Shown: positions 9,713-64,000 of the stretch, one piece after another
Layout of the letters: the number at the start of each line of letters is the position of its first letter
Numbering within the stretch: the stretch's first letter is position 1
NCBI RefSeq assembly: GCF_965363235.1
Contig: NC_134842.1
Location: forward strand, 33,976,757 to 34,040,756
Length of the DNA: 64,000 nt
Origin: Mytilus galloprovincialis
Lineage: Eukaryota
Reading direction: 5' to 3'
Program-made: the position numbers and the translations under genes
The notes under the pieces: generated by a model
Databases searched by the model: none
Seen by the model: only the letters and a program-made list of their open reading frames with translations
What the model was told of the DNA's origin: nothing

Positions 9713-9713
9713 A

Positions 9714-16678: not shown

Positions 16679-16890
16679 ATGAGAAACGTAATATGTATAT
16701 TACATAACCAAATGAACTTATACCGAATAGTTTTATGTGGAAACTCTTCTTAGCCAGAAAGAACATTTTTTATCATGACCTCTGTCTGTTAAGACTGATG
16801 GATACAATTTTAATTCATACTTTTGCATTATGTTATTTGATGAAGATTTAATTCATAACTATTACTCTAAGTTTTCTTTTTAAATCTTAG

Positions 16891-17134: not shown

Positions 17135-17519
17135 GTAAGTAGCATGGTTCATGTAAATTTTTACTGGAATTTGATGGCATAAGTGGTTAATAGGTGATTT
17201 GCTAAATCATTCAGATTTGACAACTTCATTGTTTAATTGTGTTTGATGTAGTTGTGAAGAATAGCCCACACACAAACTTAAATTTAAATCATTTCAGTTT
17301 AAAGTCGAGTTTATAATGGTGCTGGTTCCAAGTTTGTATATGTACCATTTTCTGTTTTGGCACAGTCCTTTTATTATCTGAAATTCTCTTTTGGGTGATC
17401 ATAAGAACCTTCGATTCATGTTACAACAAAACTACATGCTATCTATTCATTGAACTCAACAAAGCTGACAAGTTTTATTATTAATGATAACGTTAGTACA
17501 ATATAAAATCTTATTTTAG

Positions 17520-17861
17520 GAATCTGAATTGGAAAGACTTACACAAGCAAGAGAGGCAGAACTAGCATATGTCCGAGAACAAGATGAAATAGAACTAAGC
17601 AAATCTAGGGAAATGTCAAGCATTGAAACCACCAAATTCAAGAACATGGTGGACGCAATTGGAGCAAATACATTGGCAACCATGGCGTCGGCTGGACCAG
17701 ACCAACAGGTCCGTATGTTGCAGTCCCTGGGCCTGAAATCCACCTTAATCACGGACGGTAGCACACCTATTAATCTGTTTAATACAGCTAATGGATTGAT
17801 TGGAGGTATGATGCCAGCAAAGAGGCGAAATCGGAATGACGACGATGATTGTTATGAATAA
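17520..17861 (+). CDS. MVP: MVP exon 12 (terminal, includes TAA stop): [113 protein letters not shown]
   Basis: Acceptor cttattttag|gaa. Matches human EAELQRVQ...[58 protein letters not shown]. Stop TAA at 17859-17861. The C-terminal tail after NTANGLIGG is short and lineage-specific, so a further small intron at ggtatg (17807) cannot be excluded. Confidence 0.8.
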
Positions 17862-24177: not shown

Positions 24178-24688
24178 ATTTACATAGTATTGTCTATAGT
24201 ATCTTCTTCTGCTATGTACTTGGAAAGAATATAAGATATTGCTACCAAATGATCGATGCAAGCTCATTCCTAAAATAGTCATATACCTAAAACTACCGAT
24301 AAAATAGTGTTTTAAAATGCACAACTTCTACCGAGTTTACATAAGTTATAACGTGTAACTGTATCCACAATGGTCGGCTTACTAATCATGGTCAGTCCAT
24401 ACAAAGGAAGATTCCCATTGCAAATAGTGGTTAGGCCATAGTTGTTTTTTTATTTGTTTTGCGTCCGCGTGCGGGTAGGTTTTCTGCCAATTTGTGTCAA
24501 AAACAAACACAAACTTTTTTTTGTTCGTCAGTAGAAAATCCGTATTTTCCGGGTTTTTCCAGCCGTGTTTTTGTGTATTCTTATACTCAAATCTATTTTG
24601 CGCTTTAAATAACAAGTACGCTCCTTATTTAAAGCGTTTAAGCGATCTTGACTTCGATACATGTGAAAGCAGAAATGGCCAGTATAGG

Positions 24689-25136
24689 CCCAAGACCACA
24701 ATTAATGACCCCGCTTTTCGTTGTTCACGAATATAGTTCCCTTTAATTATAGTGTATTTTTTCTTTATTTTTTTTTCTTTCCCTTTCTCATTCATTTCTT
24801 AGCTTTTCTGGGGTGGAAATGAAAGAAGAGAGCTGAAATAAACTTCTGGATGGTTTATTTTAACTGATTTTAATAAGGAAAGAGTGATTAGGCCAGGTGC
24901 AAAAAGGTTATATTTACACTTTTCGGAACATCTCTTGACTTGCCTATAGGGGTATGGATGTGTATTGGCCAAATTTGTATGATGTAAAGATGCAATTTTT
25001 CTGAAAATTGCATATATTTTTGGACTTGTACTGTACATTACACACACAAAAAATTAGACAAAAAGAATAGGCAATTTTTTTTTAATGCGACAAAACGTTA
25101 TAAAGAAATGATAGAGGAATTAATTGTGGTCTCGGG
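24689..25136. mobile_element. First copy of the 448-bp MITE-like element. Its left TIR is exactly the left boundary of the macrosatellite array.
   Basis: Unique sequence ...gaaatggccagtatagg | cccaagaccacaattaatg. The 14 bp to its left (tggccagtatagg) resembles the in-array junction tggcccctaatagg. Confidence 0.65.
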
Positions 25137-26436
25137 CCTAAGAGGTGCATTTCAGCAAATTTTGAATTTATACTTTGACAACTTCTCTGAATGATCTATT
25201 GGTATTGATTTGTCAAACTATATGAGAAGAAATGATTTCCACTTTTATTTGATAGAAATTTGTAAAAAAAGTCACTTTTCAGCTGATATGCCCAAAAAGT
25301 AGCTTTTTCACTTTTTTCAATATTTTTGCAAAAGCAGTATCCTTAATTTTTCTCTGACATTTTTTTTCTGATATTTATTTGTGTTTGTGGTATTTATTTC
25401 ATGTGTTTTACTCATTTGTGAACTCTGAACACAAAGAAAAGTGGATAAAAGCATTAAAAGAGTGCAAAATGTGCTGTTTTAATAGTCTAGGTCTAACGGT
25501 CCGTACGAAGCAAGTGAAATATGAAGTTCTATGCACTTAAAAATTTTATTTCTTTAAACAGATTGCACTGAATCTATATCAAAAGCACTTATTACTGGTT
25601 GTTTAAACTTGTCTGTTTCACAGAATACCTTTATTTTCTTCTGTTGGATGGCTGGTGGTTAAAATTTTGGCATTTTAAGACTGAAATTTCATGCAGATTT
25701 TAAACAGTAAATTGAAAAAACTTTGCATCAGACCATACTGTCTACATATATAGTTAAAAGCAACAGTCTTGTAACATCCAGGCTTCATATTTGATCATAT
25801 CTCAGCAAGGATTTGAGCAAAAAGAAGCATATTTCCATCTCCAATATCATTTATATGCAATTTAATATGGAAATATAGGGAACGGCCCAAATTGACAACT
25901 TGTTATTTTAAGCTTGACATTGCTTAAGACCATGTAAAACTCATGTGTTATGCTCTTTGAAACTTATATTTACATCAAAAGAACATTTATGATATGTAAA
26001 ATGTTTTGTTTTAACTTAACAACTTCAGAAAATTGTTGTAAGTGGAAAATATTACATTTCATATAAGGCCTCACTTCATTTGAAAACCTCTATTTTTTGG
26101 CATAGGCACATATAAAATTAACTTTTGTCAAATTTTTATAAGTCTCATACATTAAGTATGCTATCATGTACTTTGAATAGCTAATATATTATCCATTGAG
26201 ACATTAAAAAGTGCAATTTGGTGTTTTTTGGGGATTTTTGAAGCCAAAATTTGAAAGTTGAAATTGTTCTATTTCAACGTCACAATTCAGCAACCAAAGT
26301 TGAGATATAAAAAATGCCACATTTTCTATAATATATATCATATGGCTTTGAAACTTTGTAAACTGACTCATAATACACTAAGCTTAACTCATGCCAAGTT
26401 TTATTGGAATTGGTCAAGTTTTTGGCCCCTAATAGG

Positions 26437-26884
26437 CCCAAGACCACAATTAATGACCCCGCTTTTCGTTGTTCACGAATATAGTTCCCTTTAATTATAG
26501 TGTATTTTTTCTTTATTTTTTTTTCTTTCCCTTTCTCATTCATTTCTTAGCTTTTCTGGGGTGGAAATGAAAGAAGAGAGCTGAAATAAACTTCTGGATG
26601 GTTTATTTTAACTGATTTTAATAAGGAAAGAGTGATTAGGCCAGGTGCAAAAAGGTTATATTTACACTTTTCGGAACATCTCTTGACTTGCCTATAGGGG
26701 TATGGATGTGTATTGGCCAAATTTGTATGATGTAAAGATGCAATTTTTCTGAAAATTGCATATATTTTTGGACTTGTACTGTACATTACACACACAAAAA
26801 ATTAGACAAAAAGAATAGGCAATTTTTTTTTAATGCGACAAAACGTTATAAAGAAATGATAGAGGAATTAATTGTGGTCTCGGG
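26437..26884. mobile_element. 448-bp MITE-like insertion inside the macrosatellite unit (representative copy). 18-bp TIRs CCCAAGACCACAATTAAT / ATTAATTGTGGTCTCGGG, flanked by a 9-bp TSD CCTAATAGG / CCTAAGAGG. Present in 19 units, with starts at 24689, 26437, 28185, 29933, 31681, 33429, 37761, 39509, 42549, 45589, 47338, 49086, 50834, 52582, 55621, 57369, 59118, 60866 and 62615.
   Basis: Five units (empty sites at 35169-35177, 36461-36469, 41249-41257, 44289-44297, 54321-54329) lack exactly this 448 bp plus one TSD copy. That accounts precisely for the 457-bp difference (1748 vs 1291). Confidence 0.7.
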
Positions 26885-29800
26885 CCTAAGAGGTGCATTT
26901 CAGCAAATTTTGAATTTATACTTTGACAACTTCTCTGAATGATCTATTGGTATTGATTTGTCAAACTATATGAGAAGAAATGATTTCCACTTTTATTTGA
27001 TAGAAATTTGTAAAAAAAGTCACTTTTCAGCTGATATGCCCAAAAAGTAGCTTTTTCACTTTTTTCAATATTTTTGCAAAAGCAGTATCCTTAATTTTTC
27101 TCTGACATTTTTTTTCTGATATTTATTTGTGTTTGTGGTATTTATTTCATGTGTTTTACTCATTTGTGAACTCTGAACACAAAGAAAAGTGGATAAAAGC
27201 ATTAAAAGAGTGCAAAATGTGCTGTTTTAATAGTCTAGGTCTAACGGTCCGTACGAAGCAAGTGAAATATGAAGTTCTATGCACTTAAAAATTTTATTTC
27301 TTTAAACAGATTGCACTGAATCTATATCAAAAGCACTTATTACTGGTTGTTTAAACTTGTCTGTTTCACAGAATACCTTTATTTTCTTCTGTTGGATGGC
27401 TGGTGGTTAAAATTTTGGCATTTTAAGACTGAAATTTCATGCAGATTTTAAACAGTAAATTGAAAAAACTTTGCATCAGACCATACTGTCTACATATATA
27501 GTTAAAAGCAACAGTCTTGTAACATCCAGGCTTCATATTTGATCATATCTCAGCAAGGATTTGAGCAAAAAGAAGCATATTTCCATCTCCAATATCATTT
27601 ATATGCAATTTAATATGGAAATATAGGGAACGGCCCAAATTGACAACTTGTTATTTTAAGCTTGACATTGCTTAAGACCATGTAAAACTCATGTGTTATG
27701 CTCTTTGAAACTTATATTTACATCAAAAGAACATTTATGATATGTAAAATGTTTTGTTTTAACTTAACAACTTCAGAAAATTGTTGTAAGTGGAAAATAT
27801 TACATTTCATATAAGGCCTCACTTCATTTGAAAACCTCTATTTTTTGGCATAGGCACATATAAAATTAACTTTTGTCAAATTTTTATAAGTCTCATACAT
27901 TAAGTATGCTATCATGTACTTTGAATAGCTAATATATTATCCATTGAGACATTAAAAAGTGCAATTTGGTGTTTTTTGGGGATTTTTGAAGCCAAAATTT
28001 GAAAGTTGAAATTGTTCTATTTCAACGTCACAATTCAGCAACCAAAGTTGAGATATAAAAAATGCCACATTTTCTATAATATATATCATATGGCTTTGAA
28101 ACTTTGTAAACTGACTCATAATACACTAAGCTTAACTCATGCCAAGTTTTATTGGAATTGGTCAAGTTTTTGGCCCCTAATAGGCCCAAGACCACAATTA
28201 ATGACCCCGCTTTTCGTTGTTCACGAATATAGTTCCCTTTAATTATAGTGTATTTTTTCTTTATTTTTTTTTCTTTCCCTTTCTCATTCATTTCTTAGCT
28301 TTTCTGGGGTGGAAATGAAAGAAGAGAGCTGAAATAAACTTCTGGATGGTTTATTTTAACTGATTTTAATAAGGAAAGAGTGATTAGGCCAGGTGCAAAA
28401 AGGTTATATTTACACTTTTCGGAACATCTCTTGACTTGCCTATAGGGGTATGGATGTGTATTGGCCAAATTTGTATGATGTAAAGATGCAATTTTTCTGA
28501 AAATTGCATATATTTTTGGACTTGTACTGTACATTACACACACAAAAAATTAGACAAAAAGAATAGGCAATTTTTTTTTAATGCGACAAAACGTTATAAA
28601 GAAATGATAGAGGAATTAATTGTGGTCTCGGGCCTAAGAGGTGCATTTCAGCAAATTTTGAATTTATACTTTGACAACTTCTCTGAATGATCTATTGGTA
28701 TTGATTTGTCAAACTATATGAGAAGAAATGATTTCCACTTTTATTTGATAGAAATTTGTAAAAAAAGTCACTTTTCAGCTGATATGCCCAAAAAGTAGCT
28801 TTTTCACTTTTTTCAATATTTTTGCAAAAGCAGTATCCTTAATTTTTCTCTGACATTTTTTTTCTGATATTTATTTGTGTTTGTGGTATTTATTTCATGT
28901 GTTTTACTCATTTGTGAACTCTGAACACAAAGAAAAGTGGATAAAAGCATTAAAAGAGTGCAAAATGTGCTGTTTTAATAGTCTAGGTCTAACGGTCCGT
29001 ACGAAGCAAGTGAAATATGAAGTTCTATGCACTTAAAAATTTTATTTCTTTAAACAGATTGCACTGAATCTATATCAAAAGCACTTATTACTGGTTGTTT
29101 AAACTTGTCTGTTTCACAGAATACCTTTATTTTCTTCTGTTGGATGGCTGGTGGTTAAAATTTTGGCATTTTAAGACTGAAATTTCATGCAGATTTTAAA
29201 CAGTAAATTGAAAAAACTTTGCATCAGACCATACTGTCTACATATATAGTTAAAAGCAACAGTCTTGTAACATCCAGGCTTCATATTTGATCATATCTCA
29301 GCAAGGATTTGAGCAAAAAGAAGCATATTTCCATCTCCAATATCATTTATATGCAATTTAATATGGAAATATAGGGAACGGCCCAAATTGACAACTTGTT
29401 ATTTTAAGCTTGACATTGCTTAAGACCATGTAAAACTCATGTGTTATGCTCTTTGAAACTTATATTTACATCAAAAGAACATTTATGATATGTAAAATGT
29501 TTTGTTTTAACTTAACAACTTCAGAAAATTGTTGTAAGTGGAAAATATTACATTTCATATAAGGCCTCACTTCATTTGAAAACCTCTATTTTTTGGCATA
29601 GGCACATATAAAATTAACTTTTGTCAAATTTTTATAAGTCTCATACATTAAGTATGCTATCATGTACTTTGAATAGCTAATATATTATCCATTGAGACAT
29701 TAAAAAGTGCAATTTGGTGTTTTTTGGGGATTTTTGAAGCCAAAATTTGAAAGTTGAAATTGTTCTATTTCAACGTCACAATTCAGCAACCAAAGTTGAG

Positions 29801-32800
29801 ATATAAAAAATGCCACATTTTCTATAATATATATCATATGGCTTTGAAACTTTGTAAACTGACTCATAATACACTAAGCTTAACTCATGCCAAGTTTTAT
29901 TGGAATTGGTCAAGTTTTTGGCCCCTAATAGGCCCAAGACCACAATTAATGACCCCGCTTTTCGTTGTTCACGAATATAGTTCCCTTTAATTATAGTGTA
30001 TTTTTTCTTTATTTTTTTTTCTTTCCCTTTCTCATTCATTTCTTAGCTTTTCTGGGGTGGAAATGAAAGAAGAGAGCTGAAATAAACTTCTGGATGGTTT
30101 ATTTTAACTGATTTTAATAAGGAAAGAGTGATTAGGCCAGGTGCAAAAAGGTTATATTTACACTTTTCGGAACATCTCTTGACTTGCCTATAGGGGTATG
30201 GATGTGTATTGGCCAAATTTGTATGATGTAAAGATGCAATTTTTCTGAAAATTGCATATATTTTTGGACTTGTACTGTACATTACACACACAAAAAATTA
30301 GACAAAAAGAATAGGCAATTTTTTTTTAATGCGACAAAACGTTATAAAGAAATGATAGAGGAATTAATTGTGGTCTCGGGCCTAAGAGGTGCATTTCAGC
30401 AAATTTTGAATTTATACTTTGACAACTTCTCTGAATGATCTATTGGTATTGATTTGTCAAACTATATGAGAAGAAATGATTTCCACTTTTATTTGATAGA
30501 AATTTGTAAAAAAAGTCACTTTTCAGCTGATATGCCCAAAAAGTAGCTTTTTCACTTTTTTCAATATTTTTGCAAAAGCAGTATCCTTAATTTTTCTCTG
30601 ACATTTTTTTTCTGATATTTATTTGTGTTTGTGGTATTTATTTCATGTGTTTTACTCATTTGTGAACTCTGAACACAAAGAAAAGTGGATAAAAGCATTA
30701 AAAGAGTGCAAAATGTGCTGTTTTAATAGTCTAGGTCTAACGGTCCGTACGAAGCAAGTGAAATATGAAGTTCTATGCACTTAAAAATTTTATTTCTTTA
30801 AACAGATTGCACTGAATCTATATCAAAAGCACTTATTACTGGTTGTTTAAACTTGTCTGTTTCACAGAATACCTTTATTTTCTTCTGTTGGATGGCTGGT
30901 GGTTAAAATTTTGGCATTTTAAGACTGAAATTTCATGCAGATTTTAAACAGTAAATTGAAAAAACTTTGCATCAGACCATACTGTCTACATATATAGTTA
31001 AAAGCAACAGTCTTGTAACATCCAGGCTTCATATTTGATCATATCTCAGCAAGGATTTGAGCAAAAAGAAGCATATTTCCATCTCCAATATCATTTATAT
31101 GCAATTTAATATGGAAATATAGGGAACGGCCCAAATTGACAACTTGTTATTTTAAGCTTGACATTGCTTAAGACCATGTAAAACTCATGTGTTATGCTCT
31201 TTGAAACTTATATTTACATCAAAAGAACATTTATGATATGTAAAATGTTTTGTTTTAACTTAACAACTTCAGAAAATTGTTGTAAGTGGAAAATATTACA
31301 TTTCATATAAGGCCTCACTTCATTTGAAAACCTCTATTTTTTGGCATAGGCACATATAAAATTAACTTTTGTCAAATTTTTATAAGTCTCATACATTAAG
31401 TATGCTATCATGTACTTTGAATAGCTAATATATTATCCATTGAGACATTAAAAAGTGCAATTTGGTGTTTTTTGGGGATTTTTGAAGCCAAAATTTGAAA
31501 GTTGAAATTGTTCTATTTCAACGTCACAATTCAGCAACCAAAGTTGAGATATAAAAAATGCCACATTTTCTATAATATATATCATATGGCTTTGAAACTT
31601 TGTAAACTGACTCATAATACACTAAGCTTAACTCATGCCAAGTTTTATTGGAATTGGTCAAGTTTTTGGCCCCTAATAGGCCCAAGACCACAATTAATGA
31701 CCCCGCTTTTCGTTGTTCACGAATATAGTTCCCTTTAATTATAGTGTATTTTTTCTTTATTTTTTTTTCTTTCCCTTTCTCATTCATTTCTTAGCTTTTC
31801 TGGGGTGGAAATGAAAGAAGAGAGCTGAAATAAACTTCTGGATGGTTTATTTTAACTGATTTTAATAAGGAAAGAGTGATTAGGCCAGGTGCAAAAAGGT
31901 TATATTTACACTTTTCGGAACATCTCTTGACTTGCCTATAGGGGTATGGATGTGTATTGGCCAAATTTGTATGATGTAAAGATGCAATTTTTCTGAAAAT
32001 TGCATATATTTTTGGACTTGTACTGTACATTACACACACAAAAAATTAGACAAAAAGAATAGGCAATTTTTTTTTAATGCGACAAAACGTTATAAAGAAA
32101 TGATAGAGGAATTAATTGTGGTCTCGGGCCTAAGAGGTGCATTTCAGCAAATTTTGAATTTATACTTTGACAACTTCTCTGAATGATCTATTGGTATTGA
32201 TTTGTCAAACTATATGAGAAGAAATGATTTCCACTTTTATTTGATAGAAATTTGTAAAAAAAGTCACTTTTCAGCTGATATGCCCAAAAAGTAGCTTTTT
32301 CACTTTTTTCAATATTTTTGCAAAAGCAGTATCCTTAATTTTTCTCTGACATTTTTTTTCTGATATTTATTTGTGTTTGTGGTATTTATTTCATGTGTTT
32401 TACTCATTTGTGAACTCTGAACACAAAGAAAAGTGGATAAAAGCATTAAAAGAGTGCAAAATGTGCTGTTTTAATAGTCTAGGTCTAACGGTCCGTACGA
32501 AGCAAGTGAAATATGAAGTTCTATGCACTTAAAAATTTTATTTCTTTAAACAGATTGCACTGAATCTATATCAAAAGCACTTATTACTGGTTGTTTAAAC
32601 TTGTCTGTTTCACAGAATACCTTTATTTTCTTCTGTTGGATGGCTGGTGGTTAAAATTTTGGCATTTTAAGACTGAAATTTCATGCAGATTTTAAACAGT
32701 AAATTGAAAAAACTTTGCATCAGACCATACTGTCTACATATATAGTTAAAAGCAACAGTCTTGTAACATCCAGGCTTCATATTTGATCATATCTCAGCAA

Positions 32801-35800
32801 GGATTTGAGCAAAAAGAAGCATATTTCCATCTCCAATATCATTTATATGCAATTTAATATGGAAATATAGGGAACGGCCCAAATTGACAACTTGTTATTT
32901 TAAGCTTGACATTGCTTAAGACCATGTAAAACTCATGTGTTATGCTCTTTGAAACTTATATTTACATCAAAAGAACATTTATGATATGTAAAATGTTTTG
33001 TTTTAACTTAACAACTTCAGAAAATTGTTGTAAGTGGAAAATATTACATTTCATATAAGGCCTCACTTCATTTGAAAACCTCTATTTTTTGGCATAGGCA
33101 CATATAAAATTAACTTTTGTCAAATTTTTATAAGTCTCATACATTAAGTATGCTATCATGTACTTTGAATAGCTAATATATTATCCATTGAGACATTAAA
33201 AAGTGCAATTTGGTGTTTTTTGGGGATTTTTGAAGCCAAAATTTGAAAGTTGAAATTGTTCTATTTCAACGTCACAATTCAGCAACCAAAGTTGAGATAT
33301 AAAAAATGCCACATTTTCTATAATATATATCATATGGCTTTGAAACTTTGTAAACTGACTCATAATACACTAAGCTTAACTCATGCCAAGTTTTATTGGA
33401 ATTGGTCAAGTTTTTGGCCCCTAATAGGCCCAAGACCACAATTAATGACCCCGCTTTTCGTTGTTCACGAATATAGTTCCCTTTAATTATAGTGTATTTT
33501 TTCTTTATTTTTTTTTCTTTCCCTTTCTCATTCATTTCTTAGCTTTTCTGGGGTGGAAATGAAAGAAGAGAGCTGAAATAAACTTCTGGATGGTTTATTT
33601 TAACTGATTTTAATAAGGAAAGAGTGATTAGGCCAGGTGCAAAAAGGTTATATTTACACTTTTCGGAACATCTCTTGACTTGCCTATAGGGGTATGGATG
33701 TGTATTGGCCAAATTTGTATGATGTAAAGATGCAATTTTTCTGAAAATTGCATATATTTTTGGACTTGTACTGTACATTACACACACAAAAAATTAGACA
33801 AAAAGAATAGGCAATTTTTTTTTAATGCGACAAAACGTTATAAAGAAATGATAGAGGAATTAATTGTGGTCTCGGGCCTAAGAGGTGCATTTCAGCAAAT
33901 TTTGAATTTATACTTTGACAACTTCTCTGAATGATCTATTGGTATTGATTTGTCAAACTATATGAGAAGAAATGATTTCCACTTTTATTTGATAGAAATT
34001 TGTAAAAAAAAGTCACTTTTCAGCTGATATGCCCAAAAAGTAGCTTTTTCACTTTTTTCAATATTTTTGCAAAAGCAGTATCCTTAATTTTTCTCTGACA
34101 TTTTTTTTCTGATATTTATTTGTGTTTGTGGTATTTATTTCATGTGTTTTACTCATTTGTGAACTCTGAACACAAAGAAAAGTGGATAAAAGCATTAAAA
34201 GAGTGCAAAATGTGCTGTTTTAATAGTCTAGGTCTAACGGTCCGTACGAAGCAAGTGAAATATGAAGTTCTATGCACTTAAAAATTTTATTTCTTTAAAC
34301 AGATTGCACTGAATCTATATCAAAAGCACTTATTACTGGTTGTTTAAACTTGTCTGTTTCACAGAATACCTTTATTTTCTTCTGTTGGATGGCTGGTGGT
34401 TAAAATTTTGGCATTTTAAGACTGAAATTTCATGCAGATTTTAAACAGTAAATTGAAAAAACTTTGCATCAGACCATACTGTCTACATATATAGTTAAAA
34501 GCAACAGTCTTGTAACATCCAGGCTTCATATTTGATCATATCTCAGCAAGGATTTGAGCAAAAAGAAGCATATTTCCATCTCCAATATCATTTATATGCA
34601 ATTTAATATGGAAATATAGGGAACGGCCCAAATTGACAACTTGTTATTTTAAGCTTGACATTGCTTAAGACCATGTAAAACTCATGTGTTATGCTCTTTG
34701 AAACTTATATTTACATCAAAAGAACATTTATGATATGTAAAATGTTTTGTTTTAACTTAACAACTTCAGAAAATTGTTGTAAGTGGAAAATATTACATTT
34801 CATATAAGGCCTCACTTCATTTGAAAACCTCTATTTTTTGGCATAGGCACATATAAAATTAACTTTTGTCAAATTTTTATAAGTCTCATACATTAAGTAT
34901 GCTATCATGTACTTTGAATAGCTAATATATTATCCATTGAGACATTAAAAAGTGCAATTTGGTGTTTTTTGGGGATTTTTGAAGCCAAAATTTGAAAGTT
35001 GAAATTGTTCTATTTCAACGTCACAATTCAGCAACCAAAGTTGAGATATAAAAAATGCCACATTTTCTATAATATATATCATATGGCTTTGAAACTTTGT
35101 AAACTGACTCATAATACACTAAGCTTAACTCATGCCAAGTTTTATTGGAATTGGTCAAGTTTTTGGCCCCTAATAGGTGCATTTCAGCAAATTTTGAATT
35201 TATACTTTGACAACTTCTCTGAATGATCTATTGGTATTGATTTGTCAAACTATATGAGAAGAAATGATTTCCACTTTTATTTGATAGAAATTTGTAAAAA
35301 AAAGTCACTTTTCAGCTGATATGCCCAAAAAGTAGCTTTTTCACTTTTTTCAATATTTTTGCAAAAGCAGTATCCTTAATTTTTCTCTGACATTTTTTTT
35401 CTGATATTTATTTGTGTTTGTGGTATTTATTTCATGTGTTTTACTCATTTGTGAACTCTGAACACAAAGAAAAGTGGATAAAAGCATTAAAAGAGTGCAA
35501 AATGTGCTGTTTTAATAGTCTAGGTCTAACGGTCCGTACGAAGCAAGTGAAATATGAAGTTCTATGCACTTAAAAATTTTATTTCTTTAAACAGATTGCA
35601 CTGAATCTATATCAAAAGCACTTATTACTGGTTGTTTAAACTTGTCTGTTTCACAGAATACCTTTATTTTCTTCTGTTGGATGGCTGGTGGTTAAAATTT
35701 TGGCATTTTAAGACTGAAATTTCATGCAGATTTTAAACAGTAAATTGAAAAAACTTTGCATCAGACCATACTGTCTACATATATAGTTAAAAGCAACAGT

Positions 35801-38800
35801 CTTGTAACATCCAGGCTTCATATTTGATCATATCTCAGCAAGGATTTGAGCAAAAAGAAGCATATTTCCATCTCCAATATCATTTATATGCAATTTAATA
35901 TGGAAATATAGGGAACGGCCCAAATTGACAACTTGTTATTTTAAGCTTGACATTGCTTAAGACCATGTAAAACTCATGTGTTATGCTCTTTGAAACTTAT
36001 ATTTACATCAAAAGAACATTTATGATATGTAAAATGTTTTGTTTTAACTTAACAACTTCAGAAAATTGTTGTAAGTGGAAAATATTACATTTCATATAAG
36101 GCCTCACTTCATTTGAAAACCTCTATTTTTTGGCATAGGCACATATAAAATTAACTTTTGTCAAATTTTTATAAGTCTCATACATTAAGTATGCTATCAT
36201 GTACTTTGAATAGCTAATATATTATCCATTGAGACATTAAAAAGTGCAATTTGGTGTTTTTTGGGGATTTTTGAAGCCAAAATTTGAAAGTTGAAATTGT
36301 TCTATTTCAACGTCACAATTCAGCAACCAAAGTTGAGATATAAAAAATGCCACATTTTCTATAATATATATCATATGGCTTTGAAACTTTGTAAACTGAC
36401 TCATAATACACTAAGCTTAACTCATGCCAAGTTTTATTGGAATTGGTCAAGTTTTTGGCCCCTAATAGGTGCATTTCAGCAAATTTTGAATTTATACTTT
36501 GACAACTTCTCTGAATGATCTATTGGTATTGATTTGTCAAACTATATGAGAAGAAATGATTTCCACTTTTATTTGATAGAAATTTGTAAAAAAAGTCACT
36601 TTTCAGCTGATATGCCCAAAAAGTAGCTTTTTCACTTTTTTCAATATTTTTGCAAAAGCAGTATCCTTAATTTTTCTCTGACATTTTTTTTCTGATATTT
36701 ATTTGTGTTTGTGGTATTTATTTCATGTGTTTTACTCATTTGTGAACTCTGAACACAAAGAAAAGTGGATAAAAGCATTAAAAGAGTGCAAAATGTGCTG
36801 TTTTAATAGTCTAGGTCTAACGGTCCGTACGAAGCAAGTGAAATATGAAGTTCTATGCACTTAAAAATTTTATTTCTTTAAACAGATTGCACTGAATCTA
36901 TATCAAAAGCACTTATTACTGGTTGTTTAAACTTGTCTGTTTCACAGAATACCTTTATTTTCTTCTGTTGGATGGCTGGTGGTTAAAATTTTGGCATTTT
37001 AAGACTGAAATTTCATGCAGATTTTAAACAGTAAATTGAAAAAACTTTGCATCAGACCATACTGTCTACATATATAGTTAAAAGCAACAGTCTTGTAACA
37101 TCCAGGCTTCATATTTGATCATATCTCAGCAAGGATTTGAGCAAAAAGAAGCATATTTCCATCTCCAATATCATTTATATGCAATTTAATATGGAAATAT
37201 AGGGAACGGCCCAAATTGACAACTTGTTATTTTAAGCTTGACATTGCTTAAGACCATGTAAAACTCATGTGTTATGCTCTTTGAAACTTATATTTACATC
37301 AAAAGAACATTTATGATATGTAAAATGTTTTGTTTTAACTTAACAACTTCAGAAAATTGTTGTAAGTGGAAAATATTACATTTCATATAAGGCCTCACTT
37401 CATTTGAAAACCTCTATTTTTTGGCATAGGCACATATAAAATTAACTTTTGTCAAATTTTTATAAGTCTCATACATTAAGTATGCTATCATGTACTTTGA
37501 ATAGCTAATATATTATCCATTGAGACATTAAAAAGTGCAATTTGGTGTTTTTTGGGGATTTTTGAAGCCAAAATTTGAAAGTTGAAATTGTTCTATTTCA
37601 ACGTCACAATTCAGCAACCAAAGTTGAGATATAAAAAATGCCACATTTTCTATAATATATATCATATGGCTTTGAAACTTTGTAAACTGACTCATAATAC
37701 ACTAAGCTTAACTCATGCCAAGTTTTATTGGAATTGGTCAAGTTTTTGGCCCCTAATAGGCCCAAGACCACAATTAATGACCCCGCTTTTCGTTGTTCAC
37801 GAATATAGTTCCCTTTAATTATAGTGTATTTTTTCTTTATTTTTTTTTCTTTCCCTTTCTCATTCATTTCTTAGCTTTTCTGGGGTGGAAATGAAAGAAG
37901 AGAGCTGAAATAAACTTCTGGATGGTTTATTTTAACTGATTTTAATAAGGAAAGAGTGATTAGGCCAGGTGCAAAAAGGTTATATTTACACTTTTCGGAA
38001 CATCTCTTGACTTGCCTATAGGGGTATGGATGTGTATTGGCCAAATTTGTATGATGTAAAGATGCAATTTTTCTGAAAATTGCATATATTTTTGGACTTG
38101 TACTGTACATTACACACACAAAAAATTAGACAAAAAGAATAGGCAATTTTTTTTTAATGCGACAAAACGTTATAAAGAAATGATAGAGGAATTAATTGTG
38201 GTCTCGGGCCTAAGAGGTGCATTTCAGCAAATTTTGAATTTATACTTTGACAACTTCTCTGAATGATCTATTGGTATTGATTTGTCAAACTATATGAGAA
38301 GAAATGATTTCCACTTTTATTTGATAGAAATTTGTAAAAAAAGTCACTTTTCAGCTGATATGCCCAAAAAGTAGCTTTTTCACTTTTTTCAATATTTTTG
38401 CAAAAGCAGTATCCTTAATTTTTCTCTGACATTTTTTTTCTGATATTTATTTGTGTTTGTGGTATTTATTTCATGTGTTTTACTCATTTGTGAACTCTGA
38501 ACACAAAGAAAAGTGGATAAAAGCATTAAAAGAGTGCAAAATGTGCTGTTTTAATAGTCTAGGTCTAACGGTCCGTACGAAGCAAGTGAAATATGAAGTT
38601 CTATGCACTTAAAAATTTTATTTCTTTAAACAGATTGCACTGAATCTATATCAAAAGCACTTATTACTGGTTGTTTAAACTTGTCTGTTTCACAGAATAC
38701 CTTTATTTTCTTCTGTTGGATGGCTGGTGGTTAAAATTTTGGCATTTTAAGACTGAAATTTCATGCAGATTTTAAACAGTAAATTGAAAAAACTTTGCAT

Positions 38801-41800
38801 CAGACCATACTGTCTACATATATAGTTAAAAGCAACAGTCTTGTAACATCCAGGCTTCATATTTGATCATATCTCAGCAAGGATTTGAGCAAAAAGAAGC
38901 ATATTTCCATCTCCAATATCATTTATATGCAATTTAATATGGAAATATAGGGAACGGCCCAAATTGACAACTTGTTATTTTAAGCTTGACATTGCTTAAG
39001 ACCATGTAAAACTCATGTGTTATGCTCTTTGAAACTTATATTTACATCAAAAGAACATTTATGATATGTAAAATGTTTTGTTTTAACTTAACAACTTCAG
39101 AAAATTGTTGTAAGTGGAAAATATTACATTTCATATAAGGCCTCACTTCATTTGAAAACCTCTATTTTTTGGCATAGGCACATATAAAATTAACTTTTGT
39201 CAAATTTTTATAAGTCTCATACATTAAGTATGCTATCATGTACTTTGAATAGCTAATATATTATCCATTGAGACATTAAAAAGTGCAATTTGGTGTTTTT
39301 TGGGGATTTTTGAAGCCAAAATTTGAAAGTTGAAATTGTTCTATTTCAACGTCACAATTCAGCAACCAAAGTTGAGATATAAAAAATGCCACATTTTCTA
39401 TAATATATATCATATGGCTTTGAAACTTTGTAAACTGACTCATAATACACTAAGCTTAACTCATGCCAAGTTTTATTGGAATTGGTCAAGTTTTTGGCCC
39501 CTAATAGGCCCAAGACCACAATTAATGACCCCGCTTTTCGTTGTTCACGAATATAGTTCCCTTTAATTATAGTGTATTTTTTCTTTATTTTTTTTTCTTT
39601 CCCTTTCTCATTCATTTCTTAGCTTTTCTGGGGTGGAAATGAAAGAAGAGAGCTGAAATAAACTTCTGGATGGTTTATTTTAACTGATTTTAATAAGGAA
39701 AGAGTGATTAGGCCAGGTGCAAAAAGGTTATATTTACACTTTTCGGAACATCTCTTGACTTGCCTATAGGGGTATGGATGTGTATTGGCCAAATTTGTAT
39801 GATGTAAAGATGCAATTTTTCTGAAAATTGCATATATTTTTGGACTTGTACTGTACATTACACACACAAAAAATTAGACAAAAAGAATAGGCAATTTTTT
39901 TTTAATGCGACAAAACGTTATAAAGAAATGATAGAGGAATTAATTGTGGTCTCGGGCCTAAGAGGTGCATTTCAGCAAATTTTGAATTTATACTTTGACA
40001 ACTTCTCTGAATGATCTATTGGTATTGATTTGTCAAACTATATGAGAAGAAATGATTTCCACTTTTATTTGATAGAAATTTGTAAAAAAAGTCACTTTTC
40101 AGCTGATATGCCCAAAAAGTAGCTTTTTCACTTTTTTCAATATTTTTGCAAAAGCAGTATCCTTAATTTTTCTCTGACATTTTTTTTCTGATATTTATTT
40201 GTGTTTGTGGTATTTATTTCATGTGTTTTACTCATTTGTGAACTCTGAACACAAAGAAAAGTGGATAAAAGCATTAAAAGAGTGCAAAATGTGCTGTTTT
40301 AATAGTCTAGGTCTAACGGTCAGTACGAAGCAAGTGAAATATGAAGTTCTATGCACTTAAAAATTTTATTTCTTTAAACAGATTGCACTGAATCTATATC
40401 AAAAGCACTTATTACTGGTTGTTTAAACTTGTCTGTTTCACAGAATACCTTTATTTTCTTCTGTTGGATGGCTGGTGGTTAAAATTTTGGCATTTTAAGA
40501 CTGAAATTTCATGCAGATTTTAAACAGTAAATTGAAAAAAACTTTGCATCAGACCATACTGTCTACATATATAGTTAAAAGCAACAGTCTTGTAACATCC
40601 AGGCTTCATATTTGATCATATCTCAGCAAGGATTTGAGCAAAAAGAAGCATATTTCCATCTCCAATATCATTTATATGCAATTTAATATGGAAATATAGG
40701 GAACGGCCCAAATTGACAACTTGTTATTTTAAGCTTGACATTGCTTAAGACCATGTAAAACTCATGTGTTATGCTCTTTGAAACTTATATTTACATCAAA
40801 AGAACATTTATGATATGTAAAATGTTTTGTTTTAACTTAACAACTTCAGAAAATTGTTGTAAGTGGAAAATATTACATTTCATATAAGGCCTCACTTCAT
40901 TTGAAAACCTCTATTTTTTGGCATAGGCACATATAAAATTAACTTTTGTCAAATTTTTATAAGTCTCATACATTAAGTATGCTATCATGTACTTTGAATA
41001 GCTAATATATTATCCATTGAGACATTAAAAAGTGCAATTTGGTGTTTTTTGGGGATTTTTGAAGCCAAAATTTGAAAGTTGAAATTGTTCTATTTCAACG
41101 TCACAATTCAGCAACCAAAGTTGAGATATAAAAAATGCCACATTTTCTATAATATATATCATATGGCTTTGAAACTTTGTAAACTGACTCATAATACACT
41201 AAGCTTAACTCATGCCAAGTTTTATTGGAATTGGTCAAGTTTTTGGCCCCTAATAGGTGCATTTCAGCAAATTTTGAATTTATACTTTGACAACTTCTCT
41301 GAATGATCTATTGGTATTGATTTGTCAAACTATATGAGAAGAAATGATTTCCACTTTTATTTGATAGAAATTTGTAAAAAAAGTCACTTTTCAGCTGATA
41401 TGCCCAAAAAGTAGCTTTTTCACTTTTTTCAATATTTTTGCAAAAGCAGTATCCTTAATTTTTCTCTGACATTTTTTTTCTGATATTTATTTGTGTTTGT
41501 GGTATTTATTTCATGTGTTTTACTCATTTGTGAACTCTGAACACAAAGAAAAGTGGATAAAAGCATTAAAAGAGTGCAAAATGTGCTGTTTTAATAGTCT
41601 AGGTCTAACGGTCCGTACGAAGCAAGTGAAATATGAAGTTCTATGCACTTAAAAATTTTATTTCTTTAAACAGATTGCACTGAATCTATATCAAAAGCAC
41701 TTATTACTGGTTGTTTAAACTTGTCTGTTTCACAGAATACCTTTATTTTCTTCTGTTGGATGGCTGGTGGTTAAAATTTTGGCATTTTAAGACTGAAATT

Positions 41801-44800
41801 TCATGCAGATTTTAAACAGTAAATTGAAAAAACTTTGCATCAGACCATACTGTCTACATATATAGTTAAAAGCAACAGTCTTGTAACATCCAGGCTTCAT
41901 ATTTGATCATATCTCAGCAAGGATTTGAGCAAAAAGAAGCATATTTCCATCTCCAATATCATTTATATGCAATTTAATATGGAAATATAGGGAACGGCCC
42001 AAATTGACAACTTGTTATTTTAAGCTTGACATTGCTTAAGACCATGTAAAACTCATGTGTTATGCTCTTTGAAACTTATATTTACATCAAAAGAACATTT
42101 ATGATATGTAAAATGTTTTGTTTTAACTTAACAACTTCAGAAAATTGTTGTAAGTGGAAAATATTACATTTCATATAAGGCCTCACTTCATTTGAAAACC
42201 TCTATTTTTTGGCATAGGCACATATAAAATTAACTTTTGTCAAATTTTTATAAGTCTCATACATTAAGTATGCTATCATGTACTTTGAATAGCTAATATA
42301 TTATCCATTGAGACATTAAAAAGTGCAATTTGGTGTTTTTTGGGGATTTTTGAAGCCAAAATTTGAAAGTTGAAATTGTTCTATTTCAACGTCACAATTC
42401 AGCAACCAAAGTTGAGATATAAAAAATGCCACATTTTCTATAATATATATCATATGGCTTTGAAACTTTGTAAACTGACTCATAATACACTAAGCTTAAC
42501 TCATGCCAAGTTTTATTGGAATTGGTCAAGTTTTTGGCCCCTAATAGGCCCAAGACCACAATTAATGACCCCGCTTTTCGTTGTTCACGAATATAGTTCC
42601 CTTTAATTATAGTGTATTTTTTCTTTATTTTTTTTTTCTTTCCCTTTCTCATTCATTTCTTAGCTTTTCTGGGGTGGAAATGAAAGAAGAGAGCTGAAAT
42701 AAACTTCTGGATGGTTTATTTTAACTGATTTTAATAAGGAAAGAGTGATTAGGCCAGGTGCAAAAAGGTTATATTTACACTTTTCGGAACATCTCTTGAC
42801 TTGCCTATAGGGGTATGGATGTGTATTGGCCAAATTTGTATGATGTAAAGATGCAATTTTTCTGAAAATTGCATATATTTTTGGACTTGTACTGTACATT
42901 ACACACACAAAAAATTAGACAAAAAGAATAGGCAATTTTTTTTTAATGCGACAAAACGTTATAAAGAAATGATAGAGGAATTAATTGTGGTCTCGGGCCT
43001 AAGAGGTGCATTTCAGCAAATTTTGAATTTATACTTTGACAACTTCTCTGAATGATCTATTGGTATTGATTTGTCAAACTATATGAGAAGAAATGATTTC
43101 CACTTTTATTTGATAGAAATTTGTAAAAAAAGTCACTTTTCAGCTGATATGCCCAAAAAGTAGCTTTTTCACTTTTTTCAATATTTTTGCAAAAGCAGTA
43201 TCCTTAATTTTTCTCTGACATTTTTTTTCTGATATTTATTTGTGTTTGTGGTATTTATTTCATGTGTTTTACTCATTTGTGAACTCTGAACACAAAGAAA
43301 AGTGGATAAAAGCATTAAAAGAGTGCAAAATGTGCTGTTTTAATAGTCTAGGTCTAACGGTCCGTACGAAGCAAGTGAAATATGAAGTTCTATGCACTTA
43401 AAAATTTTATTTCTTTAAACAGATTGCACTGAATCTATATCAAAAGCACTTATTACTGGTTGTTTAAACTTGTCTGTTTCACAGAATACCTTTATTTTCT
43501 TCTGTTGGATGGCTGGTGGTTAAAATTTTGGCATTTTAAGACTGAAATTTCATGCAGATTTTAAACAGTAAATTGAAAAAACTTTGCATCAGACCATACT
43601 GTCTACATATATAGTTAAAAGCAACAGTCTTGTAACATCCAGGCTTCATATTTGATCATATCTCAGCAAGGATTTGAGCAAAAAGAAGCATATTTCCATC
43701 TCCAATATCATTTATATGCAATTTAATATGGAAATATAGGGAACGGCCCAAATTGACAACTTGTTATTTTAAGCTTGACATTGCTTAAGACCATGTAAAA
43801 CTCATGTGTTATGCTCTTTGAAACTTATATTTACATCAAAAGAACATTTATGATATGTAAAATGTTTTGTTTTAACTTAACAACTTCAGAAAATTGTTGT
43901 AAGTGGAAAATATTACATTTCATATAAGGCCTCACTTCATTTGAAAACCTCTATTTTTTGGCATAGGCACATATAAAATTAACTTTTGTCAAATTTTTAT
44001 AAGTCTCATACATTAAGTATGCTATCATGTACTTTGAATAGCTAATATATTATCCATTGAGACATTAAAAAGTGCAATTTGGTGTTTTTTGGGGATTTTT
44101 GAAGCCAAAATTTGAAAGTTGAAATTGTTCTATTTCAACGTCACAATTCAGCAACCAAAGTTGAGATATAAAAAATGCCACATTTTCTATAATATATATC
44201 ATATGGCTTTGAAACTTTGTAAACTGACTCATAATACACTAAGCTTAACTCATGCCAAGTTTTATTGGAATTGGTCAAGTTTTTGGCCCCTAATAGGTGC
44301 ATTTCAGCAAATTTTGAATTTATACTTTGACAACTTCTCTGAATGATCTATTGGTATTGATTTGTCAAACTATATGAGAAGAAATGATTTCCACTTTTAT
44401 TTGATAGAAATTTGTAAAAAAAGTCACTTTTCAGCTGATATGCCCAAAAAGTAGCTTTTTCACTTTTTTCAATATTTTTGCAAAAGCAGTATCCTTAATT
44501 TTTCTCTGACATTTTTTTTCTGATATTTATTTGTGTTTGTGGTATTTATTTCATGTGTTTTACTCATTTGTGAACTCTGAACACAAAGAAAAGTGGATAA
44601 AAGCATTAAAAGAGTGCAAAATGTGCTGTTTTAATAGTCTAGGTCTAACGGTCCGTACGAAGCAAGTGAAATATGAAGTTCTATGCACTTAAAAATTTTA
44701 TTTCTTTAAACAGATTGCACTGAATCTATATCAAAAGCACTTATTACTGGTTGTTTAAACTTGTCTGTTTCACAGAATACCTTTATTTTCTTCTGTTGGA

Positions 44801-47800
44801 TGGCTGGTGGTTAAAATTTTGGCATTTTAAGACTGAAATTTCATGCAGATTTTAAACAGTAAATTGAAAAAACTTTGCATCAGACCATACTGTCTACATA
44901 TATAGTTAAAAGCAACAGTCTTGTAACATCCAGGCTTCATATTTGATCATATCTCAGCAAGGATTTGAGCAAAAAGAAGCATATTTCCATCTCCAATATC
45001 ATTTATATGCAATTTAATATGGAAATATAGGGAACGGCCCAAATTGACAACTTGTTATTTTAAGCTTGACATTGCTTAAGACCATGTAAAACTCATGTGT
45101 TATGCTCTTTGAAACTTATATTTACATCAAAAGAACATTTATGATATGTAAAATGTTTTGTTTTAACTTAACAACTTCAGAAAATTGTTGTAAGTGGAAA
45201 ATATTACATTTCATATAAGGCCTCACTTCATTTGAAAACCTCTATTTTTTGGCATAGGCACATATAAAATTAACTTTTGTCAAATTTTTATAAGTCTCAT
45301 ACATTAAGTATGCTATCATGTACTTTGAATAGCTAATATATTATCCATTGAGACATTAAAAAGTGCAATTTGGTGTTTTTTGGGGATTTTTGAAGCCAAA
45401 ATTTGAAAGTTGAAATTGTTCTATTTCAACGTCACAATTCAGCAACCAAAGTTGAGATATAAAAAATGCCACATTTTCTATAATATATATCATATGGCTT
45501 TGAAACTTTGTAAACTGACTCATAATACACTAAGCTTAACTCATGCCAAGTTTTATTGGAATTGGTCAAGTTTTTGGCCCCTAATAGGCCCAAGACCACA
45601 ATTAATGACCCCGCTTTTCGTTGTTCACGAATATAGTTCCCTTTAATTATAGTGTATTTTTTCTTTATTTTTTTTTCTTTCCCTTTCTCATTCATTTCTT
45701 AGCTTTTCTGGGGTGGAAATGAAAGAAGAGAGCTGAAATAAACTTCTGGATGGTTTATTTTAACTGATTTTAATAAGGAAAGAGTGATTAGGCCAGGTGC
45801 AAAAAGGTTATATTTACACTTTTCGGAACATCTCTTGACTTGCCTATAGGGGTATGGATGTGTATTGGCCAAATTTGTATGATGTAAAGATGCAATTTTT
45901 CTGAAAATTGCATATATTTTTGGACTTGTACTGTACATTACACACACAAAAAATTAGACAAAAAGAATAGGCAATTTTTTTTTAATGCGACAAAACGTTA
46001 TAAAGAAATGATAGAGGAATTAATTGTGGTCTCGGGCCTAAGAGGTGCATTTCAGCAAATTTTGAATTTATACTTTGACAACTTCTCTGAATGATCTATT
46101 GGTATTGATTTGTCAAACTATATGAGAAGAAATGATTTCCACTTTTATTTGATAGAAATTTGTAAAAAAAAGTCACTTTTCAGCTGATATGCCCAAAAAG
46201 TAGCTTTTTCACTTTTTTCAATATTTTTGCAAAAGCAGTATCCTTAATTTTTCTCTGACATTTTTTTTCTGATATTTATTTGTGTTTGTGGTATTTATTT
46301 CATGTGTTTTACTCATTTGTGAACTCTGAACACAAAGAAAAGTGGATAAAAGCATTAAAAGAGTGCAAAATGTGCTGTTTTAATAGTCTAGGTCTAACGG
46401 TCCGTACGAAGCAAGTGAAATATGAAGTTCTATGCACTTAAAAATTTTATTTCTTTAAACAGATTGCACTGAATCTATATCAAAAGCACTTATTACTGGT
46501 TGTTTAAACTTGTCTGTTTCACAGAATACCTTTATTTTCTTCTGTTGGATGGCTGGTGGTTAAAATTTTGGCATTTTAAGACTGAAATTTCATGCAGATT
46601 TTAAACAGTAAATTGAAAAAACTTTGCATCAGACCATACTGTCTACATATATAGTTAAAAGCAACAGTCTTGTAACATCCAGGCTTCATATTTGATCATA
46701 TCTCAGCAAGGATTTGAGCAAAAAGAAGCATATTTCCATCTCCAATATCATTTATATGCAATTTAATATGGAAATATAGGGAACGGCCCAAATTGACAAC
46801 TTGTTATTTTAAGCTTGACATTGCTTAAGACCATGTAAAACTCATGTGTTATGCTCTTTGAAACTTATATTTACATCAAAAGAACATTTATGATATGTAA
46901 AATGTTTTGTTTTAACTTAACAACTTCAGAAAATTGTTGTAAGTGGAAAATATTACATTTCATATAAGGCCTCACTTCATTTGAAAACCTCTATTTTTTG
47001 GCATAGGCACATATAAAATTAACTTTTGTCAAATTTTTATAAGTCTCATACATTAAGTATGCTATCATGTACTTTGAATAGCTAATATATTATCCATTGA
47101 GACATTAAAAAGTGCAATTTGGTGTTTTTTGGGGATTTTTGAAGCCAAAATTTGAAAGTTGAAATTGTTCTATTTCAACGTCACAATTCAGCAACCAAAG
47201 TTGAGATATAAAAAATGCCACATTTTCTATAATATATATCATATGGCTTTGAAACTTTGTAAACTGACTCATAATACACTAAGCTTAACTCATGCCAAGT
47301 TTTATTGGAATTGGTCAAGTTTTTGGCCCCTAATAGGCCCAAGACCACAATTAATGACCCCGCTTTTCGTTGTTCACGAATATAGTTCCCTTTAATTATA
47401 GTGTATTTTTTCTTTATTTTTTTTTCTTTCCCTTTCTCATTCATTTCTTAGCTTTTCTGGGGTGGAAATGAAAGAAGAGAGCTGAAATAAACTTCTGGAT
47501 GGTTTATTTTAACTGATTTTAATAAGGAAAGAGTGATTAGGCCAGGTGCAAAAAGGTTATATTTACACTTTTCGGAACATCTCTTGACTTGCCTATAGGG
47601 GTATGGATGTGTATTGGCCAAATTTGTATGATGTAAAGATGCAATTTTTCTGAAAATTGCATATATTTTTGGACTTGTACTGTACATTACACACACAAAA
47701 AATTAGACAAAAAGAATAGGCAATTTTTTTTTAATGCGACAAAACGTTATAAAGAAATGATAGAGGAATTAATTGTGGTCTCGGGCCTAAGAGGTGCATT

Positions 47801-62800: not shown

Positions 62801-64000
62801 AAGGAAAGAGTGATTAGGCCAGGTGCAAAAAGGTTATATTTACACTTTTCGGAACATCTCTTGACTTGCCTATAGGGGTATGGATGTGTATTGGCCAAAT
62901 TTGTATGATGTAAAGATGCAATTTTTCTGAAAATTGCATATATTTTTGGACTTGTACTGTACATTACACACACAAAAAATTAGACAAAAAGAATAGGCAA
63001 TTTTTTTTTAATGCGACAAAACGTTATAAAGAAATGATAGAGGAATTAATTGTGGTCTCGGGCCTAAGAGGTGCATTTCAGCAAATTTTGAATTTATACT
63101 TTGACAACTTCTCTGAATGATCTATTGGTATTGATTTGTCAAACTATATGAGAAGAAATGATTTCCACTTTTATTTGATAGAAATTTGTAAAAAAAAGTC
63201 ACTTTTCAGCTGATATGCCCAAAAAGTAGCTTTTTCACTTTTTTCAATATTTTTGCAAAAGCAGTATCCTTAATTTTTCTCTGACATTTTTTTTCTGATA
63301 TTTATTTGTGTTTGTGGTATTTATTTCATGTGTTTTACTCATTTGTGAACTCTGAACACAAAGAAAAGTGGATAAAGCATTAAAAGAGTGCAAAATGTGC
63401 TGTTTTAATAGTCTAGGTCTAACGGTCCGTACGAAGCAAGTGAAATATGAAGTTCTATGCACTTAAAAATTTTATTTCTTTAAACAGATTGCACTGAATC
63501 TATATCAAAAGCACTTATTACTGGTTGTTTAAACTTGTCTGTTTCACAGAATACCTTTATTTTCTTCTGTTGGATGGCTGGTGGTTAAAATTTTGGCATT
63601 TTAAGACTGAAATTTCATGCAGATTTTAAACAGTAAATTGAAAAAACTTTGCATCAGACCATACTGTCTACATATATAGTTAAAAGCAACAGTCTTGTAA
63701 CATCCAGGCTTCATATTTGATCATATCTCAGCAAGGATTTGAGCAAAAAGAAGCATATTTCCATCTCCAATATCATTTATATGCAATTTAATATGGAAAT
63801 ATAGGGAACGGCCCAAATTGACAACTTGTTATTTTAAGCTTGACATTGCTTAAGACCATGTAAAACTCATGTGTTATGCTCTTTGAAACTTATATTTACA
63901 TCAAAAGAACATTTATGATATGTAAAATGTTTTGTTTTAACTTAACAACTTCAGAAAATTGTTGTAAGTGGAAAATATTACATTTCATATAAGGCCTCAC

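Follow-up and report, generated by a model that had tools for sequence, protein, structure and literature searches.

A satellite-scale tandem array in Mytilus galloprovincialis as a probable multimer of a non-autonomous KolobokP DNA transposon

KolobokP is a lineage of Kolobok DNA transposons that is especially rich in bivalves, including Mytilus, and its proteins have been placed in Kolobok by the published phylogeny (Kojima & Bao 2022, Mob DNA, PMC9587614). Termini of the form 5'-RR...YY-3' were described there for Kolobok and KolobokP, together with solo copies of the terminal direct repeat (LTDR), multimers of the structure (LTDR-INT)n-LTDR, in which INT is the internal region, non-autonomous families, and models of unequal crossover; the same paper proposed that unequal exchange is possibly induced by the homing-type nuclease of the family. 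At INT-INT junctions, deletions of a few base pairs were reported at either INT tip ("3 or 4 bp" in the main statement), and excision footprints were reported to have 1-5 bp removed on one side. The lineage is composite-like: two LTDRs of about 450 bp (or about 660 bp), each with short inverted repeats of its own (11-20 bp), enclose an INT, and a target site duplication of 3-5 bp is expected at the outermost ends of a monomer, a multimer or a solo LTDR. For KolobokP-1_MyCo (4848 bp, LTDR 449), Table S1 of that paper gives a target site duplication (TSD) of 4 and a terminal inverted repeat (TIR) of 20.

We analysed a window of 64,000 nucleotides from Mytilus galloprovincialis (contig NC_134842.1, positions 33,976,757 to 34,040,756 of the forward strand), which is AT-rich and carries a tandem array extending to its right end. 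We consider it highly probable that this array is a tandem multimer of a non-autonomous KolobokP transposon. The locus and its relatives share with the published KolobokP elements the solo LTDRs, the multimers with shared LTDRs, the losses of a few base pairs at INT-INT junctions and the existence of non-autonomous families. The parameters listed in Table S1 for KolobokP-1_MyCo, KolobokP-4_MyGa and KolobokP-6_MyEd agree with those derived here: LTDRs of about 450 bp, each bearing 20-bp inverted repeats and RR...YY ends, and, from the related copies, TSDs of 4 bp. The locus differs in having a 1296-bp non-coding INT that was not found among the published consensus sequences, judged from the machine-read supplement, in losing 5 bp rather than "3 or 4 bp" at the INT-INT junctions, and in its size: the examples spelled out in PMC9587614 contain 2-4 INTs, whereas this multimer has no fewer than 24 and exceeds 39 kb, which is the scale of a satellite. 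It is the non-autonomous member with this INT, referred to below as INT B, that is new, and the multimer is unusually long, while the process has already been described; the idea that the family architecture itself is undescribed was dropped, as it is already present in Kojima & Bao 2022.

Several other systems are similar in part. The tandem arrays of hobo (16 copies) and Bari1 (McGurk & Barbash, Genome Res 2018, PMC5932611) are also made of DNA transposons, grow by unequal exchange and have edges at element ends; however, their dimers come mainly from double insertion at a preferred site and consist of whole elements placed head to tail, whereas adjacent units in the present array have a terminal direct repeat in common, which makes unequal exchange part of the architecture itself. 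Arrays of TRIM and Cassandra elements (for bivalve TRIMs, PMC6934838) have the arrangement LTR-int-LTR-int-LTR, with shared direct terminal repeats and solo repeats, but the present family uses no reverse transcription, has 20-bp inverted repeats and GG...CC rather than TG...CA ends, and has an autonomous partner with a DDD/E transposase. An LTR retrotransposon, TRIM or other retro-transposed element was rejected on the GG...CC ends and the DDD/E transposase partner, and no TGG-type primer-binding site was found after either repeat in either orientation. In bacterial composite and IS26-type pseudo-compound transposons, cargo also lies between direct small mobile units able to move alone, and circular "translocatable unit" models have been proposed both for them and for KolobokP; in contrast, the present system is eukaryotic, its transposase belongs to the cargo and not to the flanking repeat, and the cargo in the window is non-coding. 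Finally, satellite-carrying MITEs and Helentron derivatives of bivalves (PMC7492417) also link mobile elements with tandem repeats, but those repeats are short (about 130-170 bp) and lie inside the element, whereas here the terminal repeat and the internal region together constitute the repeat unit.

Unique DNA passes into the array at 24688|24689, where the sequence reads ...GAAATGGCCAGTATAGG|CCCAAGACCACAATTAAT: the unique part stops at 24686-24688, and the array opens with the terminal inverted repeat of an element of about 450 bp. The string CCCAAGACCACAATTAAT has 19 occurrences on the + strand between 24689 and the window end, with about 0.1 expected by chance, and its inverted partner, with one mismatch, has 19 occurrences on the - strand, each time downstream and spaced 448-449 bp from it. 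If the phase of the boundary within the 1748-bp unit were random, it would fall within 2 bp on either side of one of the element ends about 0.6% of the time; thus, the coincidence of the boundary with an element end is real, as the original prediction had stated. In the 24.7 kb to the left of the array (window positions 1-24688), no element- or unit-like sequence was found. On the right, the array reaches the window end at 64000, and its right end lies beyond the window.

The layout, anchored on the flanks, is that of an (LTDR-INT)n multimer at 24687..64000 (+), with 19 LTDRs and 24 INTs over 39.3 kb, the last INT being cut by the window end. As the window ends inside the array, these numbers are lower bounds (at least 24 INTs and at least 19 LTDRs). 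The period is 1748/1749 bp where an LTDR is present and 1291/1292 bp at the five places where it is absent, and LTDR-containing and LTDR-less units follow each other in an irregular order. Comparison within the array yields 5 variable columns out of 1293 among the INT copies and 2 out of 449 among the LTDR copies, the units being about 99.9% identical to one another.

Some rare variants recur in units that are next or nearly next to each other. The INTs at 33886 and 35178 both have an additional A, a T variant is common to the LTDRs at 50834 and 52582, and the INTs at 57826 and 61323 carry two linked changes, which are also found at 39966. The corresponding clusters span window positions 33877-36460, 50834-53029 and 57817-62614. 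Such sharing of rare variants between neighbouring units weakly suggests local duplication steps.

The first, outermost LTDR occupies 24687..25138 (+) and is 452 bp long; it was identified by its similarity to the LTDRs of KolobokP-1_MyCo and KolobokP-4_MyGa. It corresponds to what had been described as a 448-bp element, extended by the terminal GG and CC. In independent copies elsewhere, GG always precedes CCC and CC always follows GGG; therefore, we take the element to start at 24687 and to be 452 bp long, with inverted repeats of 20 nt. The left inverted repeat, GGCCCAAGACCACAATTAAT (24687..24706, +), constitutes the array boundary, and the right one, GGCCCGAGACCACAATTAAT as read on the - strand (25119..25138, -), matches it in 19 of 20 positions. 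The GG...CC ends agree with the 5'-RR...YY-3' termini of Kolobok and KolobokP, and, as in KolobokP, the 452-bp repeat is present in direct copies, 19 in number, that alternate with INT. When reverse-complemented, the window LTDR is about 92% identical to the LTDR consensus of KolobokP-1_MyCo and 91% identical to the KolobokP-4_MyGa consensus, both compared with machine-read supplement text containing some reading errors; the published consensus orientation is opposite to that of the window LTDR. Its identity to the LTDRs of six of the fetched loci (L015, L017, L018, L021, L022, L023) is 81-96%. The window LTDR is a member of the KolobokP-1_MyCo / -4_MyGa / -6_MyEd group.

No record was found in exact-protein look-ups of window ORFs lying within the element or spanning the boundary, and metagenome contigs, when scanned for the two inverted repeats at the MITE spacing, gave no match. 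A scan of the same type of contigs for a single repeat yielded 14 loci, of which only one (L004) is related, and a protein search with the ORF inside the LTDR hit two contigs only.

The ends of L004 are the right and left ends of LTDR copies with 92% identity, adjoined by CCTAAGAGG and CTAATAGG, and its interior of 3.95 kb is unrelated to INT B. This interior encodes a 667-aa protein matching the Pfam family PF20700, "Mutator-like transposase" (E 5e-65; L004:1000-3003, -; homologues P0121-P0208), and a 154-aa protein with a zf-His_Me_endon match and weak similarity to I-PpoI. Homologues of the L004 proteins are annotated in Mytilus edulis and M. coruscus, and both transposase and nuclease motifs are present in the KolobokP alignments of PMC9587614. 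The LTDR-INT-LTDR structure with the PF20700 transposase and a zf-His_Me_endon ORF was observed in L004, L015-L018, L023 and L024; in L017, L018, L023 and L024, from Mytilus edulis and M. coruscus, two complete direct LTDR copies surround the coding region. LTDRs of the window's type flank the transposase and the zf-His_Me_endon ORF in L004, L017, L018, L023 and L024. The same build is seen in sister families, namely L019 (55% identical), L020 (a third family) and L025 from Pinctada, the latter with its own direct repeats of about 450 bp and both ORFs; one more locus, L022, is a solo LTDR.

Within a single copy, the paired LTDRs are 97-100% identical, and those of different loci 80-92% (L017, L018, L019, L025); the pair may be copied anew from a single template, or it may become homogenised once inserted. 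L020 (1-13371), a contig whose name carries the ending "_c", consists of exactly three 4.45-kb units of an autonomous KolobokP with 99.9% identity; it could be a trimer in circular form or a chromosomal multimer that was collapsed.

The class of the transposase deserves a comment, as Pfam and the source annotations label the L004-type proteins "Mutator-like transposase" (PF20700), the literature labels them Kolobok, and the TSDs are of 4 bp, which makes the name a trap. A literature search on "PF20700" returned nothing. Based on the published phylogeny (PMC9587614) and the 4-bp TSD, the family is Kolobok rather than Mutator. A MULE was rejected despite the PF20700 name: the TSDs are of 4 bp, not 8-11 bp, and the long terminal repeats are direct. 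For annotation, this means that the Pfam label points to the wrong superfamily.

The first internal region, INT B, is an AT-rich segment of 1296 bp (25139..26434, +) that starts with TAAGAGG and ends with CCTAATA. It has no ORF of 90 aa or longer; being non-coding, it makes the window copy non-autonomous. A sensitive alignment of INT B with the autonomous INTs and all fetched loci showed no homology beyond the junction motif, except for the B copies in L015 and L021; hence its origin by simple deletion from the autonomous INTs sampled here was discarded. It is also not among the consensus sequences of the PMC9587614 supplement, although absence from that machine-read text is weak evidence. Outside the window, INT B is found as INT(B)-LTDR-INT(B) in an independent assembly (L021) and as LTDR-B-LTDR in L015, with 95-97% identity to the window; an LTDR-B-LTDR monomer at another locus was not found among the fetched loci. 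In L015 (3628-5484), INT B is joined via an LTDR to a transposase-bearing INT, the LTDR being of the autonomous type over its whole length; this contig may be a genuine multimer in which autonomous and non-autonomous units are mixed, or, as it comes from short reads, a chimera, and no conclusion drawn here depends on it.

Every array-internal LTDR is flanked by CCTAATAGG on the left and by CCTAAGAGG on the right, two 9-mers that match in 8 of 9 positions. At the five junctions without an LTDR, a single 9-mer is present, in the T form at four of them and in the G form at one. The T-type junctions, with CCTAATAGG, are at 35169..35177 (+), 36461-36469, 41249-41257 and 44289-44297, and in each of them the right INT is without its first 5 nt (CCTAATA+GG); in the G-type junction, with CCTAAGAGG, at 54321..54329 (+), the left INT is without its last 5 nt (CC+TAAGAGG). 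Each joint is therefore of 1296 + 1296 - 5 bp, the loss being from the right INT tip in four of the five cases and from the left one in the remaining case. A multimer with 24 INTs, five INT-INT junctions and 5 bp lost at each of them agrees with the KolobokP architecture, and in their sequence the five junctions fit the published footprints of LTDR excision and the INT-INT pattern. They could also be products of slippage from one 9-nt repeat to the other, which needs no transposase and gives the same outcome as LTDR excision.

Taken by itself, the array resembles a MITE with a 9-bp TSD accompanied by empty sites. However, the 9-mer is a near-palindrome, so that an inverted repeat may be mistaken for a direct repeat, and both its variants occur at the "empty" sites, calling for caution over the 9-bp TSD. 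The flanks of copies elsewhere are informative in this respect. The outer 4-bp flanks match in L022 (TGTT/TGTT), L018 (TTTT/TTTT), L023 (ATAA/ATAA) and the Pinctada locus L025 (TACT/TACT), whereas L017 has AAGT with a degenerate terminus. Thus, the TSD of the family is 4 bp long and lies directly outside GG...CC. The interpretation of CCTAATAGG and CCTAAGAGG as a Mutator-type 9-bp TSD was rejected, since the outer flanks of solo and monomer copies show 4 bp. The same 9-mers recur at the unrelated transposase-bearing internal region, at other loci and in sister families, and three Mytilus families have kept ..CTAATA|GG and CC|TAAGAG.. at their inner junctions though the adjoining interior sequence differs. 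The 9-mers belong to the module junctions of the element itself and are no target duplication.

In the window, the first LTDR is preceded by TATA and followed by TAAG. The TATA at 24683..24686, in the unique flank abutting the LTDR (..CAGTATA|GGCCC; flank ..GGCCAGTATA), is the predicted left copy of the 4-bp TSD of the multimer and is visible on the left flank only, the right end of the array being beyond 64000. There, we predict a terminal LTDR, ending in ...GGTCTCGGGCC / ...ATTAATTGTGGTCTCGGGCC, followed by a matching TATA.

The original prediction further noted that the 14 bp preceding the array resemble the sequence preceding the in-array elements. The two strings, TGGCCAGTATAGG and TGGCCCCTAATAGG, are indeed alike, agreeing in 10 of 14 columns with one gap, but only ATAGG is contiguous, and the likeness does not exceed chance. 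Among pseudo-flanks taken from the non-array part of the window, 2.2% match or beat the observed right-anchored alignment score; the GG of ATAGG belongs to the inverted repeat, and among pseudo-flanks that likewise end in GG, 9.4% reach the observed score. The resemblance is within chance, and no microhomology mechanism is needed or indicated.

These observations bear on the alternatives to a KolobokP multimer. One could suppose, as was done originally, that a 448-bp MITE with a 9-bp TSD had inserted into a unit of a pre-existing 1.29-kb satellite and had been homogenised through it, the array edge being formed by aberrant transposition or by microhomology-mediated duplication. This would account for the uniform CCTAATAGG / CCTAAGAGG flanks (8/9) of all internal elements, for the five element-less units with a single 9-mer, and for the ATAGG common to the left flank and the in-array flank. 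We regard it as very unlikely: the same 9-mers surround an unrelated transposase-bearing region at other loci and in sister families, so the flanking repeat is not a site-specific TSD of the family length, which is 4 bp with GG...CC ends; TAAGAGG, the right flank that is seen, is not what a 4-bp insertion into CCTAATAGG would yield; single junctions of both the T and the G type exist; the flank resemblance is within chance; and the element itself is a published LTDR. The edge-forming routes suggested with it, through aberrant transposition or repair at the TIR or through microhomology at a TSD-like sequence, fall on the same points, namely 9-mers that are module junctions, a 4-bp TSD and a flank microhomology that is not significant. 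The broader claim of a transposon-driven origin of the satellite is supported: there is a causal link between the two, the array being a product of the transposon. A different possibility is that B is native host sequence around which two LTDR or MITE insertions occurred independently, with subsequent non-allelic recombination producing the array. Although tandem duplications between direct repeats classically arise in this way, and the array would again begin with an element end, the first LTDR would then need the same 4-mer on both sides, instead of TATA and TAAG; moreover, B has the same terminal heptamers as the autonomous INT, and B with its LTDRs is 95-97% identical in other assemblies, whereas LTDRs elsewhere differ by 8-19%. 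We find this scarcely credible.

The remaining alternatives concern the edge and the assembly rather than the element. The multimer could be older and once have extended further leftward, the junction of flank and TIR being secondary, formed when a transposase cut at an internal LTDR end was joined to upstream DNA (adjacent deletion or alternative transposition). Such an event leaves the flank joined to a TIR with no partner of the TSD in sight, and the INT-INT junctions show that LTDR ends inside multimers are evidently cut; still, an extra event would be needed where ordinary insertion gives the same left junction, and no LTDR or INT remnants are seen in the 24.7 kb to the left, making it improbable in our view. 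Inflation or mis-joining of a shorter repeat during assembly might be suspected from the near-identity of the units and from several of their few differences being single-base changes in homopolymer length. Yet the irregular order of units with and without LTDRs and the unit-specific substitutions are unlike collapse or expansion, and B-LTDR-B joints are present in independent assemblies, so that an artefact seems extremely unlikely.

Returning to the KolobokP multimer, LTDRs of this kind, with identical junction motifs, adjoin an INT with the transposase and the His-Me nuclease at other mussel loci. In a multimer of such an element, the array has its edge by construction, as the transposon end at which it starts is simply the margin of the element. 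In other words, the left boundary lies where the leftmost LTDR, with its outer end, meets an ordinary insertion site. The following history would be consistent with the structure. A transposase acting in trans would have inserted an LTDR-B-LTDR monomer or a short multimer at a TATA, 6.8 kb downstream of the major vault protein gene. The number would then have risen to at least 24 copies by unequal exchange, at first between direct LTDRs and afterwards between entire units, as the architecture, the near-identity and the local sharing of variants suggest; since the units are about 99.9% identical, this rise was probably recent. Five internal LTDRs may have been lost later by excision, with 5 bp taken from one INT tip, leaving CCTAATAGG or CCTAAGAGG. 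By analogy with the published proposal, the homing-type nuclease of the family, acting in trans, could induce the unequal exchange here as well.

The locus is an example of a near-undiverged DNA transposon reaching satellite scale (at least 24 units, more than 39 kb, about 99.9% identity) via shared terminal direct repeats, and it indicates that non-coding KolobokP derivatives multimerise too; what is known about the mechanism is unchanged by the array. For annotation, long-period "satellites" of bivalves with an embedded "MITE" may be KolobokP multimers, and a quasi-palindromic junction can mimic a 9-bp TSD.

The semi-palindromic 9-mer CCTAAKAGG is present at every LTDR/INT and INT/INT junction and consists of the INT tips and the terminal GG/CC of the LTDR; examples are at window positions 26428-26436, 25137-25145 and 35169-35177, and it is also seen in L004, L017, L018 and L020. 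It resembles the I-PpoI core, CTCTTAAGG, which makes it a candidate site for the His-Me nuclease. That CCTAAKAGG is recognised by the I-PpoI-like His-Me nuclease, and that cutting in trans at each module junction drives the expansion of the array, is a speculative suggestion to which we give only a small chance. If it were true, a homing endonuclease would be acting as a satellite-making engine.

As for the neighbourhood, exon-like ORFs of the major vault protein gene, with PF01505-type matches, are located at 5910-17861 (+), the array beginning 6.8 kb downstream of the last of them. The segment 24179-24686 is unique in the window, and the one before it, 23000-24178, is a copy of another repeat that carries a satellite. 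Three copies of this different repeat are present at window positions 8514-12706 and 23000-24178, with internal tandem repeats of about 161, 130 and 35 bp, and each of them ends in ..GTTCTTAGACCACATTCATTCTGTGTCAGA; one such copy ends about 510 bp before the array. In its organisation this repeat looks like the satellite-carrying mobile elements known from bivalves.
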